64,000 nucleotides of DNA from the sequence record NC_070983.1; one strand, given 5' to 3'. The notes beneath the pieces are model-generated. The model did not search any database, was not told the DNA's origin, and was given only the letters and a program-made list of their open reading frames with translations. Position numbers and translations under genes: made by a program. Below, piece after piece: positions 55,628 to 61,221 of this stretch. Position 1 is the stretch's first letter, and each line of letters starts with the position of its first letter. This DNA is from Escherichia phage IME267.

Positions 55628-57661
55628 TTAGTGTTTACCTTTACAGTAATCTGAATTACAGATCACCCTGTTTTCTTTGTTCAGTGAGCAAGTTTCTGCA
55701 TCACGCCACGGAATTTGTTTATAACAGACTGCACAAAACCCAATTGAAGTCCAGAGGGCTTTTGTAAACTCAGCTGTTCGTTGTCCATCGTAACTGACAA
55801 CTGTTTTTCGGAGAGAGGTTGACTTTTCTGGAAATGTCTCCGCTTTCTCAGCGGGTACCTCCTTTGGGGCATTCTTTGGACCATAAACAGAGATGGCATA
55901 AGTATCACCACCACGTTTTTCCAAATACGAATTAGGAACATCTGCAAGTGTGATGTCCCCTGAACGTTTTGCTGAGCTGACCATTACAATCATACGGCTA
56001 AGCATACGTTCATCAACACGAACAGCTACTTCAGGACGACGTGGGTTGGTTGTGTCTACTGCTTTAGTCCAAATATAACCTTCAGATAGAGTAACATTCT
56101 TTACTTTATCTTTGATTTCTTTGGAGCAGATATAACAAACGTCTTCACCACGAAGTTTACTCATTTCGTTGTCAAACTCGAAATCAGTCTTGACTTCACC
56201 ACAGATAGCACATACACCCAAAGGCACATCTTCTTCCTCTTCAGAGGTTTTAGATAACGCTTCGAAGCATTCTGGATGCCAGTATGCCTGATAAGCAAAC
56301 ACAGCCTTACGAGCATCTTTCCAGTCAATGTGCTTATCACAACCACCACAGTCACCATGAGAGTGAGATTCCCAGAACTTACGAGTGACTTCTACACCAT
56401 TCTTAGTGATGAAGGAGTCCTCTGCATCAAAAGGGATATCATCATCAAAATCAGCAGTAGTGCTTTGAGGCTCCTTATCTGTAGCATCAACAAACAGCCC
56501 TGAAGTTAGTACGAGGCGAATCATACTGTCCACTTCGGAGATACAAGCAATCGTCCCGCGATATACTACCTTTGGGTTTTCAAGAGCCTTAAGATATTCA
56601 TCTTTGGCTACGTTGTGAACATCCCCTTCGACATACTCTTGAGCTTTATCATCGTAGATGTAACCAACCATCTTACCACGATCTGTGTTGTTATAAGCAT
56701 GGAACTCGTGAGGAATAATATCCACACGACCATCACGACGATAAGGAAGACCACGATCGGCAGCCAGTTTGTTCTGGTCTTCAATCGCTTTACGACGACG
56801 AATGTCTCCGCTTGTCACGCCGGGCTTGTCGTCTTTGTTTCCGTAAATGTCGCTTGTGCTGCTGCTTGATTTGTTTGTCTGTTGGTTCTGATAAAGAGAG
56901 GAGTTCGAGTAATAGCCGCCCCAGCGACTCGTTACCGTAAAAACCGGAAGCGTGTGCTCCACCTCTTGAACCAGAGTCATACGACTGTTAGACACATCAA
57001 AGATATACTCAGTTCCCACTTTACATTCGAAGTGGTCATTGATACGGTTCTTATGGGACTTAGAACGCTCTAAAATCCACATAAGCATAGCTTCTTCAGA
57101 AGCTCCAAACCAATCCAAACCACAGCGGGCTAGGTGGAAAGGACGCTCATCATTACGGATAATGTGAAGCGTGTTGTCTTTAGCATCATGCCAAATCAAA
57201 GTGAATGCACCATCCAGTTTTTGGATAGTCTCTGCTGCTCCAATGGTGTTAATTGAGTGGCAGATGTTTTCACTATCAACTTCGAAACGCTTACTGTCAG
57301 GAAGGAGATCTTGATCTAACAGGGTTCCATTATGAACCAGAGTAATATCCCCGTGAGTAAATGGGTGAGCATTTCGAGCATTGACAGCCCCACGAGTGGC
57401 ATGTCGGCTGTGACCAACAATCCACGAAGGAGGAACTACGTAGTTCGTAAGCCCTTTGGTAATATTTGTATATTCTGTCTGGAGCATAAAAGCATAAGAA
57501 GGAAGAGCTTCTTTATAAGAGAAGACTTGCTTTTCACCTTTACGCTGACCAAACACACCAGTTGAGTGCTGTCCACGGAAAACACCAGCATACAGAAGTT
57601 GGTTGAAAATGTCCAAATCTGCTGAGGTCATGTTGCCGCCAGCTAATACGATACCACAAAT
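55628..57661 (-). CDS. Class II (Ntn-type, PurF-like) glutamine amidotransferase domain protein with Cys-rich C-terminal region; predicted AUU start
   Basis: In-frame upstream of the track ATG (57631): TAG-AAA-ATT-TGT... encodes CGIVLAGGN, then RGQHSTGV, GHSRHATRGAVNARNAHPF, LVHNGTL as in PurF. Confidence 0.65.
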   Translation of the reverse strand: MCGIVLAGGNMTSADLDIFNQLLYAGVFRGQHSTGVFGQRKGEKQVFSYKEALPSYAFMLQTEYTNITKGLTNYVVPPSWIVGHSRHATRGAVNARNAHPFTHGDITLVHNGTLLDQDLLPDSKRFEVDSENICHSINTIGAAETIQKLDGAFTLIWHDAKDNTLHIIRNDERPFHLARCGLDWFGASEEAMLMWILERSKSHKNRINDHFECKVGTEYIFDVSNSRMTLVQEVEHTLPVFTVTSRWGGYYSNSSLYQNQQTNKSSSSTSDIYGNKDDKPGVTSGDIRRRKAIEDQNKLAADRGLPYRRDGRVDIIPHEFHAYNNTDRGKMVGYIYDDKAQEYVEGDVHNVAKDEYLKALENPKVVYRGTIACISEVDSMIRLVLTSGLFVDATDKEPQSTTADFDDDIPFDAEDSFITKNGVEVTRKFWESHSHGDCGGCDKHIDWKDARKAVFAYQAYWHPECFEALSKTSEEEEDVPLGVCAICGEVKTDFEFDNEMSKLRGEDVCYICSKEIKDKVKNVTLSEGYIWTKAVDTTNPRRPEVAVRVDERMLSRMIVMVSSAKRSGDITLADVPNSYLEKRGGDTYAISVYGPKNAPKEVPAEKAETFPEKSTSLRKTVVSYDGQRTAEFTKALWTSIGFCAVCYKQIPWRDAETCSLNKENRVICNSDYCKGKH

Positions 57662-57738
57662 TTTCTAATCCACCTGAAGGGTAAACCCTTTCATCTAATT
57701 AACCTTTAAATGCGCCCTGTATAAGAGCGCCCGTTGTG

Positions 57739-58839
57739 TTACAGCAGTCGTTCTAATTGCATTTCCAGATGGTCTGGAATATAACCAGTGACGTTATCAT
57801 CACTGCTACCTGATTCACGCATCAATGCAAACATGTGACGAATTTCACGAACCGTTGCGATTCGAGTGCTTTCAATCTGAGGGGTGTAGTAGGTCATGAT
57901 CTCTTCGTAGACACTGTTGGCATTACCGCGCACATATCCCAAGAAACCATAGAAGTCATTCATATCACGTAAGTTGATAAGGACTTCACCATCAGGGCCA
58001 GTCTGTTGCACACGAACACGACCAACCAAAGTCACAGATTGCTCACGACAGAAGAGAATATCACGAGCAAGACGATACCCTTCAGTGAGATCACTGTCTC
58101 TTGGAGTATAGTCTAGGGGTAGATGTTGAATCATAGGAGCGAAGCGCAGCTCATTCAACTTCTCAACATAAGCTTCATTGTCTAAATCTGCATATTCAAC
58201 AGCCAGTTTCTTGAGAACCAAGAAGCGGTTGACCAGATTCAGAAGTTGGCTCTTTTTCCACTTCGGCTCTGAGATACGGAACTCAACAGAACCAAATTGA
58301 GATAGAGGCAAAAGATTAAGGGAGGTATATTTATCCCAGCTATTAACAAGAGAGTGGAAGAAAGCTTCCCCGTCTCGGTTGAACGCTGACGAAGCATTCA
58401 TAACTTGTGCTTGAACGACAGCAAAAGCTGGACAGAAGTTGCTACGATAGCGATGGTATCCAGAACATTTGAACATCATCTTTTCATAGAACGTCCATCC
58501 AAGAATAACTTTCTTAAGGATATTACTATCAGCGTCACGCATATCCATATGAACGTGAGTGGAGCAGCGCCAAGTTCCCTCGGCTCCAGAATCCTGTACT
58601 GCTTCACTCAGATTGTTAATAGCACGAAGTAATTCTTCACCGTTGTAAGGTCGTGCACACACTAATTCACAACCATCACGAAGAGAGCCATCTTCAGTAC
58701 AAACCCACATATCAGCGTCAATATCAGTTGTACCTTCGACTTCTAACTCAATACCAACACCACACTGAAAAGCAATACTTGGATGCGGTTCAGATAAGCG
58801 AGGGTTACGGTATCCAAAAACTTGTGCTACGGTTGTCAT
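57739..58839 (-). CDS. Glutamine synthetase-fold carboxylate-amine ligase (amidoligase / GCS2-like)
   Basis: N-terminal QCGVGIELEVEG resembles the TLGIELEMQVV first-strand motif of YbdK-type ligases. Confidence 0.5.
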   Translation of the reverse strand: MTTVAQVFGYRNPRLSEPHPSIAFQCGVGIELEVEGTTDIDADMWVCTEDGSLRDGCELVCARPYNGEELLRAINNLSEAVQDSGAEGTWRCSTHVHMDMRDADSNILKKVILGWTFYEKMMFKCSGYHRYRSNFCPAFAVVQAQVMNASSAFNRDGEAFFHSLVNSWDKYTSLNLLPLSQFGSVEFRISEPKWKKSQLLNLVNRFLVLKKLAVEYADLDNEAYVEKLNELRFAPMIQHLPLDYTPRDSDLTEGYRLARDILFCREQSVTLVGRVRVQQTGPDGEVLINLRDMNDFYGFLGYVRGNANSVYEEIMTYYTPQIESTRIATVREIRHMFALMRESGSSDDNVTGYIPDHLEMQLERLL

Positions 58840-59471: not shown

Positions 59472-60278
59472 TTATACAATCTGGAGTTTAGAGGAGAATT
59501 TATCCGCTTCTTTAACATCGTTACTGTTGATGATGTTGTGAAGCTTTTCAATTGGAAGGCGAGAGTGAAGTGACATCAATACTTCCATATCACAGCCTTG
59601 AACAACCTTATCAACTTGCTCATAAACAAACTTGCGGGTTGACTTCTCGCCAATCCAGAAGTTAGAAAGAGAACGATATTCAATGCCGTAATCCTTGTAA
59701 CGAATAGCAGAAGCCTTTCCGTATAACTCTTTACGACGAGTGTCTTTATCCATGATCACAGCTGGCAAGGACAGGAAGTAATCACACAACACACCCAACA
59801 TCATTTGAGTCTGACGACTAATTTCCAGCGTACCAGCGACGCCAAGGTGAACGTGACCGCCAGCAGTACGCAGACCTTTGTCTGTCGCTACTGGTGAAGG
59901 GTTCTTTTGTCCAGTGAAGGCATTGAAATCAGGAGTACAACCAAATACAAAGGCTGACGGATGGAAAGATTCCAGCTCTTCTGAAGTGAACACATGAGAG
60001 CTAATCCCAAGTGCTGCCTCCATGCCACGTTCATTGAGAACTTTGTTAGTCAGATCAATACCACGCTGAATGTTATCATTAAACGCTTCAAACCCTTTCT
60101 GTGGGTTAATATCAAACTCGGCCAGAACGTTGTCTTCTTGAAGACGAACATCAGGAGCCAGATCAATTTTATTATCTTTAGAACAGCCCAGCTTACCAGC
60201 CACAGAGGTGATAATACCGGAAGCAGTACGAACAAACATTTCAGGGTCAGAGCCAATAAGGAAAGCGCGCTTAGTCAT
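59472..60278 (-). CDS. Hypothetical protein, possible second GS-fold ligase
   Basis: ATG 60278 with GGAG upstream (track GTG 60323); N-terminal FLIGSDPEMFV weakly resembles the ligase first-strand motif. Confidence 0.3.
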   Translation of the reverse strand: MTKRAFLIGSDPEMFVRTASGIITSVAGKLGCSKDNKIDLAPDVRLQEDNVLAEFDINPQKGFEAFNDNIQRGIDLTNKVLNERGMEAALGISSHVFTSEELESFHPSAFVFGCTPDFNAFTGQKNPSPVATDKGLRTAGGHVHLGVAGTLEISRQTQMMLGVLCDYFLSLPAVIMDKDTRRKELYGKASAIRYKDYGIEYRSLSNFWIGEKSTRKFVYEQVDKVVQGCDMEVLMSLHSRLPIEKLHNIINSNDVKEADKFSSKLQIV

Positions 60279-61221
60279 TGTAATACTCCACGAGTTCATC
60301 AAAAAGGGAAACAACACGAGCACCAGCTTCTTCTGGTGTCATTGAGGAAGGTACTGCTTGCATCAGACGTTCGATAAAACTTTGAACAGTAATTCTGTCC
60401 ATACGCTGATCTAATACTTCTCGCTTGTGGCCTGCACAAGTTGACCAGAGACGTAACCACTCACTCATACTCTCATAATGGTCAGGGTCTTGGTCACGAC
60501 GACGTGCCATACGACGGAGAACTCCATCATTATGGTTTCGTACATAACCATCTCGGTTGTCATCAACACCGAATACATTCTGAACCCATACGTTTTCAGA
60601 AAATTCATCAGTGGTGCAAATTAATGGCAGAAATGCAATTGCACTCATGTCGCCATCAAAATAAGTCGCTGCTGACTCATCGGTTGAGTCTACGTCATTA
60701 CTATAACACCAGCGACCAAAGAAGTTACGACTTAAACCAGCTAAGCGTAGAGCTAAACCGATTCGTTGTCGCTTAAGCAACTCTTCCTTGTCTTGTACGC
60801 CTTCCTGAAGGAACTCCATTCCATTAAAATCACCATCCAAATAGCTACGGATGGTCATTAGTCCAGTAAACACCTTATCTGCTGGATGGTTTCGAAGGTT
60901 CACGGCAATAGAGTTCACCGAAGTGACAGAGAACATATCTTTATAGCAAGACATTGAGTTAAAAATGTCTGTTGCTTCAACTAAAGCTCTTTCGATATCT
61001 TTAGCTGGTACGCCATAAAAATTGTGAGGCCAGAAGTTAATAACTTCAATTTCTGAAGTTCTGTCACGAAGGCTTGTTCGGTTACGACTTTCACCGTTAA
61101 TGTCTGTAACAGAATACATGTGCATACAGTTAAAAGTACCAAAGCAAGCTCTTCCTTTGAACACTGACTCACCGAAATCCTCTGCCGGTGTTACCGGAGC
61201 AATCGATGCGGAGATTGACAT
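60271..61221 (-). CDS. Hypothetical protein in ligase cluster
   Basis: 316 aa ORF. Confidence 0.45.
   Translation of the reverse strand: MSISASIAPVTPAEDFGESVFKGRACFGTFNCMHMYSVTDINGESRNRTSLRDRTSEIEVINFWPHNFYGVPAKDIERALVEATDIFNSMSCYKDMFSVTSVNSIAVNLRNHPADKVFTGLMTIRSYLDGDFNGMEFLQEGVQDKEELLKRQRIGLALRLAGLSRNFFGRWCYSNDVDSTDESAATYFDGDMSAIAFLPLICTTDEFSENVWVQNVFGVDDNRDGYVRNHNDGVLRRMARRRDQDPDHYESMSEWLRLWSTCAGHKREVLDQRMDRITVQSFIERLMQAVPSSMTPEEAGARVVSLFDELVEYYND

Follow-up and report, generated by a model that had tools for sequence, protein, structure and literature searches.

The amidotransferase gene of Escherichia phage IME267 raises the question of where translation begins when no canonical start codon can take in the catalytic residue. 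The gene lies on the minus strand of the DNA analysed here, a stretch of 64,000 nucleotides from sequence record NC_070983.1 (hereafter the window), which belongs to a phiEco32-like E. coli podophage (Gordonclarkvirinae). Its program-called open reading frame (ORF) starts at ATG 57631. A preliminary description of the sequence had proposed that translation starts at an upstream, non-canonical AUU codon and thereby exposes the N-terminal Cys of a class II amidotransferase, and all of the comparative evidence assembled below supports that proposal. On the strength of these sequence comparisons, we consider it quite probable that the gene starts at AUU, that the initiating N-formylmethionine (fMet) is removed to expose Cys1, and that the weak start codon has been selected and is offset by a Shine–Dalgarno site and a hairpin.

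Read on the minus strand, the region runs ...TTTAAAGGTTAATTAG ATG AAA GGG TTT ACC CTT CAG GTG GAT TAG AAA ATT TGT GGT ATC GTA TTA GCT GGC GGC AAC ATG ACC... (Table 1), and the coordinates given for the start in the preliminary description are all correct. The AGGTGG Shine–Dalgarno sequence that it placed 8 nt upstream of the ATT (57661..57659) is seen in the sequence. So is the in-frame TAG, which precedes the Cys codon by two codons; the interval between this TAG and the Cys codon is free of ATG, GTG and TTG.

Table 1. Features of the amidotransferase locus, in window coordinates.
Feature	Position	Strand	Remark
Full amidotransferase coding sequence (CDS)	55628..57661	-	677 codons + stop, counted from ATT
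Class II (N-terminal nucleophile, Ntn) glutaminase domain, about residues 2-235	56957..57658	-	Pfam GATase_6, GATase_7; profile match to GlmS/PurF
Annotated ATG	57629..57631	-	Start in most annotations, here read as internal Met11; not conserved
Near-invariant leader + start element, 56 nt	57647..57702	-	Flanking coding sequence only 74-90% identical (element: at least 98.2% in 95 records)
TGT, putative catalytic N-terminal Cys codon (Cys1 once Met is removed)	57656..57658	-	Aligns with GlmS Cys1; family-invariant
ATT, proposed initiation codon (AUU)	57659..57661	-	Unchanged across 97 phage records; annotated as CDS start for phiEco32 and Bas87
Spacer attagaaa between AGGTGG and ATT	57662..57669	-	
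In-frame TAG	57665..57667	-	Two codons before Cys codon
Mini-ORF, ATG to TAG (MKGFTLQVD, then stop)	57665..57694	-	9 codons, in frame with the gene; stop 3 nt before ATT
Shine–Dalgarno AGGTGG	57670..57675	-	8 nt before ATT
Compact hairpin UGAAaGGG-UUUA-CCCUUCA, adjoining the Shine–Dalgarno site	57675..57693	-	Core AAGGG/CCCUU, -4.6 kcal/mol
Stem-loop GCGCUCU-UAUAC-AGGGCGC after the amidoligase gene	57712..57730	-	Pairing kept; phiEco32 has GUGCCUC/GGGGCAC
Upstream amidoligase gene (Amidoligase_2)	57739..58839	-	Ends 77 nt before ATT; operon context

Directly after the ATT comes TGT. When aligned, the Cys that it encodes falls on Cys1 of the mature GlmS chain of E. coli (PDB 1xff, E=2.5e-15) and on the second position of the PurF and GlmS chains. 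This alignment bears out the suggestion that the Cys of the CGIV motif is the class II amidotransferase nucleophile. When a profile of 19 family members was compared with E. coli GlmS and PurF, the match to their glutaminase domains began at residue 1; likewise, phrog_4736 matches the amidotransferase (E=3.8e-184) in an alignment that begins at profile position 2. Two Pfam families, GATase_6 (53.7 bits; cut-off 27) and GATase_7 (25.1 bits; cut-off 25), score above the gathering threshold. Residues C2, R29, G30, H84, R86, A88, T89, H110, N111, G112, D129 and S130 are invariant in the 19 members, and the motifs to which they contribute, namely Arg-Gly (RG), H-x-R-x-A-T, the Asn-Gly oxyanion hole (HNG) and Asp-Ser (VDSE), align to their GlmS equivalents. 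The Cys can stand as residue 1, as it must in a class II amidotransferase, only if translation begins at the ATT.

The same conclusion emerges from close relatives. The 2.2-kb amidotransferase region is 100% identical to that of Escherichia phage vB_EcoP_HC-25922 and 74-99% identical to that of about 95 other records. Within it, a 56-nt stretch comprising the leader, the ATT and the first four codons retains at least 98.2% identity in 95 phiEco32-like records and 94% in Aeromonas phage BUCT695. Between the ATT and the annotated ATG, the codons vary almost only synonymously among relatives (GGT/GGC, GTA/GTC, TTA/TTG, GCT/GCA, GGC/GGG/GGT), whereas the 48 nt before the ATT are invariant. This combination of synonymous change after the ATT and an invariant leader indicates that coding begins at the ATT and is preceded by a constrained non-coding element. 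The ATT itself is identical in 97 phage genome records. A base-call error, against which the preliminary description had advised a check, would have to be common to all of these independently sequenced records and to recur in unrelated metagenomic contigs that also carry ATT; we thus reject a sequencing or assembly error that hides a conventional ATG, to which we assign a negligible probability.

These data also bear on the annotated start. If ATG 57631 were the real start, the CGIVLAGGN codons would be an untranslated relic and the protein a non-catalytic, amidotransferase-like one. This ATG is the sole canonical start in frame, is preceded by a weak GGCGG, and it or a further-downstream start is used in most database records. 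However, it is replaced by CTG in phiEco32 and by CTC in EP335 and KBNP1711, in which the first in-frame ATG lies far downstream, and the nine codons upstream of it change synonymously. Moreover, all of the glutaminase catalytic residues are conserved, which would be senseless without Cys1, and distant relatives begin exactly at M/I-Cys. Initiation at ATG 57631 is, in our view, very unlikely.

Some existing records agree with the AUU start. ATT is annotated as the CDS start of phiEco32 phi32_83 (2008; GenBank and RefSeq) and of the corresponding gene in BASEL phage Bas87, so the ATT start of the window gene is already in some database records and is not new in itself. phiEco32 gp83 (phi32_83) and its counterparts in phages Bas86-94 are the same gene and have the same leader, and the records of SU10 and Bas86-94 annotate a CDS over the CGIV-coding stretch. 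N-terminally truncated annotations were found in HC-25922, SU7, ECBP2, EP335, BUCT695 and K4. Most of the approximately 95 phiEco32-like records, together with BUCT695 and K4, truncate the gene in this way and lose the catalytic Cys, and gene callers limited to ATG, GTG and TTG will repeat the truncation. No discussion of, or experimental support for, the phi32_83 ATT start was found in the searchable literature; the BASEL paper contains no discussion of the amidotransferase gene.

To survey start codons across the family, we noted which codon precedes the Cys codon, both in phages from GenBank and in three scans of IMG/VR. A first, unbiased set of 80 IMG/VR loci contained ATG at 61, ATT at 12, ATC at 5 and TTG at 1; a second set of loci was sampled around the ATT/ATC clades. 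After deduplication, an initiation-competent triplet was found before the Cys in 192 of 194 loci (136 ATG, 35 ATT, 11 ATC, 9 TTG and 1 GTG); of the other two, one reads ATG-TGC-TGT and the second is probably an error of the motif finder. None of the 192 loci has ATA, CTG or ACG at this position. Two Cys codons follow the start in locus L061, which reads ATG TGC TGT GGA (Met-Cys-Cys-Gly) at its positions 595-606. Of the 117 clusters formed at 60% identity, 27 include ATT or ATC, and a neighbour-joining tree of the first set places these codons in at least nine separate clades, with ATT-to-ATC switches within clades and ATG relatives nested among ATT/ATC loci. At 30 of the 46 ATT/ATC loci, there is an in-frame upstream stop with no intervening canonical start.

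Conservation of CGIV in homologues, a further check proposed in the preliminary description, was also borne out: most distant homologues begin M-C-G-[IL]-V. Distant homologues at 35-50% identity independently have ATT or ATC in the equivalent position, preceded at 7-9 nt by a strong Shine–Dalgarno sequence. Three database proteins carry odd N-terminal extensions that finish in Ile-Cys, and the DNA of these three reads GGAGGA, AGGAGG or AGGTGG, then 8 nt, then ATT-TG[TC]. Among 185,579 genomes of bacteria and archaea that were scanned, only three loci were found (L273-L275; starts ATG, ATG and TTG), all of which sit on 18-50 kb metagenome-assembly contigs that resemble phage genomes; the amidotransferase is essentially a lytic-phage gene. 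The family-wide recurrence of AUU/AUC, the lack of other near-cognate codons and the link to a hairpin described below appear to be new, as they were not found in the searchable literature.

The leaders of ATT/ATC loci differ from those of ATG loci in two respects. First, the Shine–Dalgarno sequence is stronger, with a mean duplex energy of -8.1 versus -6.9 kcal/mol (p=5e-4), and it is spaced 7-9 nt from the start in 43 of 45 ATT/ATC loci with a recognisable core, compared with 4-12 nt in ATG loci. Second, ATT/ATC leaders usually carry a compact hairpin like that in the window. In BUCT695, which has the equivalent hairpin, the sole change within it is in the loop. Across the family, the hairpin has approximately 5-6 bp and a loop of 3-4 nt, and its 3' end lies at -14 to -16, adjoining the Shine–Dalgarno site. 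Its position and often its loop are kept between clades and the stem sequences differ; for example, the stems of one clade are GAACCU-guu-AGGUUC, AACCUC-guu-GAGGUU, GUAGCC-guu-GGCUAC and GCCCU-guu-AGGGC. The ATG sisters L090, L073 and GAP52 are without the hairpin borne by their ATT/ATC relatives.

For counting, a hairpin had to end at -18..-11, a criterion that was set after viewing the first set and applied unchanged to the second. In these counts, which like the Shine–Dalgarno statistics are corrected for phylogeny only crudely, the hairpin was present in 20/22 ATT/ATC versus 4/65 ATG loci of the first set (p=9e-14), in 9/24 versus 5/71 of the independent second set (p=9e-4) and in 29/46 versus 9/136 of all loci (p=3e-14). 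At the level of clusters at 60% identity, the counts were 14/22 versus 9/85 (p=1e-6). Stratifying on the intergenic gap rules out that the link is a by-product of intergenic location: the hairpin was found in 25/36 ATT/ATC versus 4/53 ATG loci with a gap >10 nt (p=8e-10) and in 4/10 versus 5/83 with a gap <=10 nt (p=0.007). A literature search for an AUU start combined with an upstream hairpin returned nothing relevant. Searches of the window leader against Rfam gave nothing near the thresholds, and a scan for sigma-70 promoters and terminators gave nothing relevant there.

In the window, the hairpin lies within a mini-ORF (ATG 57694 to TAG 57665) that the preliminary description did not mention. 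The mini-ORF is kept in all phiEco32-like phages and, with two substitutions, in BUCT695. Its presence raises the alternative that the AUU is reached mainly by termination and reinitiation: ribosomes would load at AUG 57694, unfold the hairpin, terminate at UAG 57667-57665 and begin again at the AUU, 3 nt further on. The mini-ORF would then serve as an adaptor for coupling, in place of the stop codon that the upstream gene supplies at infC and in some homologues. A weak AAAGG Shine–Dalgarno-like site lies 8 nt before the mini-ORF ATG, both the ATG and the TAG are conserved in phiEco32-like phages and BUCT695, and the order of stop, 3 nt and AUU is identical to that at thrS-infC (PMC3592434). 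In addition, the stop of a long upstream ORF falls 1-4 nt before the ATT in homologues L009, L013, L102 and L104. The family as a whole points the other way. A gap within -4..10 nt was found at 4/20 ATT/ATC loci versus 26/66 ATG loci, and the median intergenic gap is 35 nt for ATT/ATC versus 2 nt for ATG. These values do not support the idea that ATT/ATC is generally explained by close coupling to a long ORF upstream. A stop codon in the spacer, considered as a hallmark of ATT/ATC, is not enriched (33/46 ATT/ATC versus 92/136 ATG). Furthermore, two of the three nucleotides of the mini-ORF AUG (UG) are base-paired within the stem of the hairpin, the feature common to different clades is the hairpin and not the mini-ORF, and an AATGTA promoter-like motif in BUCT695 would make the transcript begin at approximately the ATG of the mini-ORF (PMC12276001). 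Reinitiation as the main route to the AUU is therefore rather unlikely, and coupling through the mini-ORF is possible as a minor or contributory one.

The mini-ORF could also be connected to the gene in another way. Cellular class II amidotransferases start with ATG or, in the case of B. subtilis PurF, with a propeptide of 11 residues that is cleaved. A propeptide-type Ntn amidotransferase of the B. subtilis PurF kind was rejected for the window gene, as the in-frame TAG breaks the sole upstream ATG frame. By analogy with PurF, initiation at the mini-ORF AUG followed by readthrough of the UAG would give a 12-residue propeptide, MKGFTLQVD-X-KI, to be removed autocatalytically. The mini-ORF does share the frame of the gene, a relation conserved in phiEco32-like phages and BUCT695, but readthrough would require amber suppression, which wild E. 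coli hosts lack. ATG-type family members begin directly at Met-Cys with no propeptide, other ATT/ATC loci have in-frame stops at variable distances and no canonical start, and the invariable placement of ATT/ATC before the Cys points to the role of a start codon rather than a cleavage site. Readthrough to a cleavable propeptide is formally possible, unnecessary and unsupported, and we regard it as highly improbable.

In the mechanism that we favour, initiation at the AUU, fMet-tRNA would read AUU 57661-57659 on a ribosome positioned by AGGUGG 8 nt upstream. Deformylase and methionine aminopeptidase would take off the fMet, leaving the catalytic Cys as residue 1 of a mature protein whose predicted N-terminal peptide is CGIVLAGGNMTSADLDIFNQLLYAGVFR, beginning CGIVLAGGN. 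ATG 57631 would then encode an internal Met, and a product begun there would be without the nucleophile. The AUU is probably a selected feature rather than an accident, and would set a low or initiation factor 3 (IF3)-sensitive level of glutaminase translation, its weakness being partly offset by the strong, optimally spaced Shine–Dalgarno sequence and the abutting hairpin. The hairpin might stabilise binding of the 30S subunit by stacking on the Shine–Dalgarno helix, or might protect a poorly translated mRNA; together with the precisely spaced Shine–Dalgarno sequence, it might lengthen the stay of the 30S subunit. In this way, the phage could limit the amount of its glutaminase or make it depend on the condition of the host's initiation machinery. 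IF3 discriminates against AUU and AUC; both are at a disadvantage in competition with AUG mRNAs, and initiation at them is sensitive to ppGpp and to a shortage of nutrients. Their efficiency is reported to be a few-fold to approximately 20-fold below that of AUG (PMC3592434, PMC5499595). A single transition would turn ATG into ATA, and AUA performs no worse in vitro; its absence from the family therefore speaks against mere drift and in favour of a factor that is specific to AUU/AUC. A more ambitious possibility, which we hold only tentatively and consider less likely than its converse, is that the hairpin, the strong Shine–Dalgarno sequence at 7-9 nt and AUU/AUC together form a distinct, recurrently evolved initiation module that senses host IF3, ppGpp and temperature; glutaminase synthesis would then respond to these conditions, as infC does, and not just be held at a low level.

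Several observations weigh against selected AUU initiation. The survey of AUU/AUC covers one phage gene family, within which ATG-to-ATT/ATC switching inside clusters is frequent; such switching could mean that the start codon is only weakly selected and has no regulatory role. At 17 of 46 ATT/ATC loci, the hairpin is missing or lies elsewhere, and the fold of the whole leader is no more stable than that of shuffled sequence (z=-1.0; BUCT695 z=+1.85), so that the local hairpin alone stands out. Proteomics of SU10 detected the protein, but the paper and three supplementary files list no N-terminal peptide. Finally, AUUUGUGG (57654-57661, minus strand) contains an out-of-frame UUG (+2) and GUG (+4) within reach of AGGTGG, which might compete with the AUU. 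The reading frame from the UUG is open for approximately 44 codons.

Other elements of the leader were also noted. The hexamer ATTAGA occurs twice on the minus strand, at 57695-57700 and 57664-57669, on either side of the hairpin and Shine–Dalgarno site, in the arrangement ATTAGA-TGAAAGGGTTTACCCTTCA-GGTGG-ATTAGA-AAATT. Both copies are present in BUCT695, and the pair could be a protein-binding site or could be due to chance. Upstream of the gene in Grimontviridae-type phages is the motif TTTAAATGTAA(T)ATTAG (L014 (BUCT695), 251-275; also L015, L035 and L037). It contains AATGTA, and phiEco32-like phages have TTTAAAGGTTAATTAG as a degenerate equivalent. AATGTA is the consensus of the phiEco32 gp36-dependent middle and late promoters, centred at -11.5 (PMC12276001); the amidotransferase gene is classed as early in phiEco32-like phages. 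The stem-loop at 57712-57730 differs between phage groups on both sides of its stem, yet the pairing is retained. Only three U residues follow it; it may act as a weak terminator, or else in the processing or stability of the RNA.

Along its 677 residues, the protein has the class II glutaminase domain first, then a linker rich in Ser and finally a C-terminal region rich in Cys. Many database records call it 'L-glutamine-D-fructose-6-phosphate aminotransferase', an enzyme with which it has only the glutaminase domain in common. Identity as GlmS was rejected: the NCBIfam models PRK00331 and TIGR01135 score 41 and 34 bits against cut-offs of 381 and 418, respectively, the match is confined to residues 2-194, and Pfam shows no SIS domain. 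The C-terminal 440 residues (55628-56950, minus strand) are phage-specific, with a Ser-rich low-complexity linker and several CxxC pairs. A weak LIM-like Pfam match falls in this region, and distant homologues likewise finish with CxxC...CxxC motifs, which suggests that the C terminus is a zinc-ribbon module. Neighbouring genes match Amidoligase_2, a phiEco32-type COOH-NH2 ligase type 2 and a RimK-like ATP-grasp gene by Pfam and PHROG, and the distant loci L011 and L013 keep all three kinds of neighbour. These neighbours match those of a phage amidoligase/ATP-grasp/GATase cluster reportedly described by Iyer, Abhiman, Burroughs and Aravind in 2009, in work that is said not to address translation initiation. 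The COOH-NH2 ligase ORF (59472-60323, minus strand) has a program-called GTG start, and its PHROG profile aligns only from residue 16; its true start is probably the ATG at residue 16 (…SITMTKRAF…).

These findings have implications beyond the annotation of one gene. AUU/AUC starts are found in approximately one quarter of the lineages of one phage family, although they are held to be exceptional in bacteria (infC and pcnB). The stronger, tightly spaced Shine–Dalgarno sequence, the hairpin and the absence of AUA argue for selection on the start codon and offer a testable link to IF3. If the hairpin, Shine–Dalgarno sequence and start do form an initiation module that senses the host, no gene family other than infC would previously have been known to keep AUU/AUC across many lineages, and the phage family would supply more than 40 natural variants for studying how the ribosome accepts non-canonical starts. 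The fixed Cys1 of Ntn enzymes is, in addition, a built-in marker of the true start and could expose hidden non-canonical starts elsewhere.

Comparison with known systems places the phage gene among both the class II amidotransferases and the few genes with AUU starts. With GlmS, PurF and AsnB, the phage protein has in common the N-terminal Cys in a CGI[VL] motif, the Arg, the Asn-Gly and the Asp; unlike them, it is without an SIS, phosphoribosyltransferase (PRTase) or synthetase acceptor domain. In its start, the gene resembles infC, for which we read the E. coli thrS-infC junction directly as GGAGGAaTAAggtATT. This sequence and that of the window, AGGTGGatTAGaaaATT, have a parallel layout: in both, an AUU is preceded by a strong Shine–Dalgarno sequence (of the GGAGG type in infC) 8 nt upstream and by an upstream-frame stop 3 nt before the AUU. 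As expected of a gene of the infC type, the amidotransferase gene has no canonical in-frame alternative, a functional Shine–Dalgarno spacing and a start codon conserved among orthologues. Across bacteria, infC starts with AUU or AUC, and this start is the target of IF3 autoregulation (PMC5499595). Among Ile-type codons, infC and the phage family alike use AUU and AUC and never AUA (PMC5499595). By contrast, no hairpin abutting the Shine–Dalgarno sequence was seen in the infC leader. Furthermore, infC is autoregulated by its own product, whereas the phage enzyme has no part in translation; any dependence on IF3 would therefore amount to sensing rather than feedback. A second parallel is pcnB, which encodes poly(A) polymerase and whose AUU start limits expression, according to the citation of Binns and Masters (2002) in PMC3592434. 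The logic of keeping a potentially harmful enzyme scarce would be similar there, but pcnB is a single gene in one lineage, whereas AUU/AUC in the phage amidotransferases recurs across a gene family.

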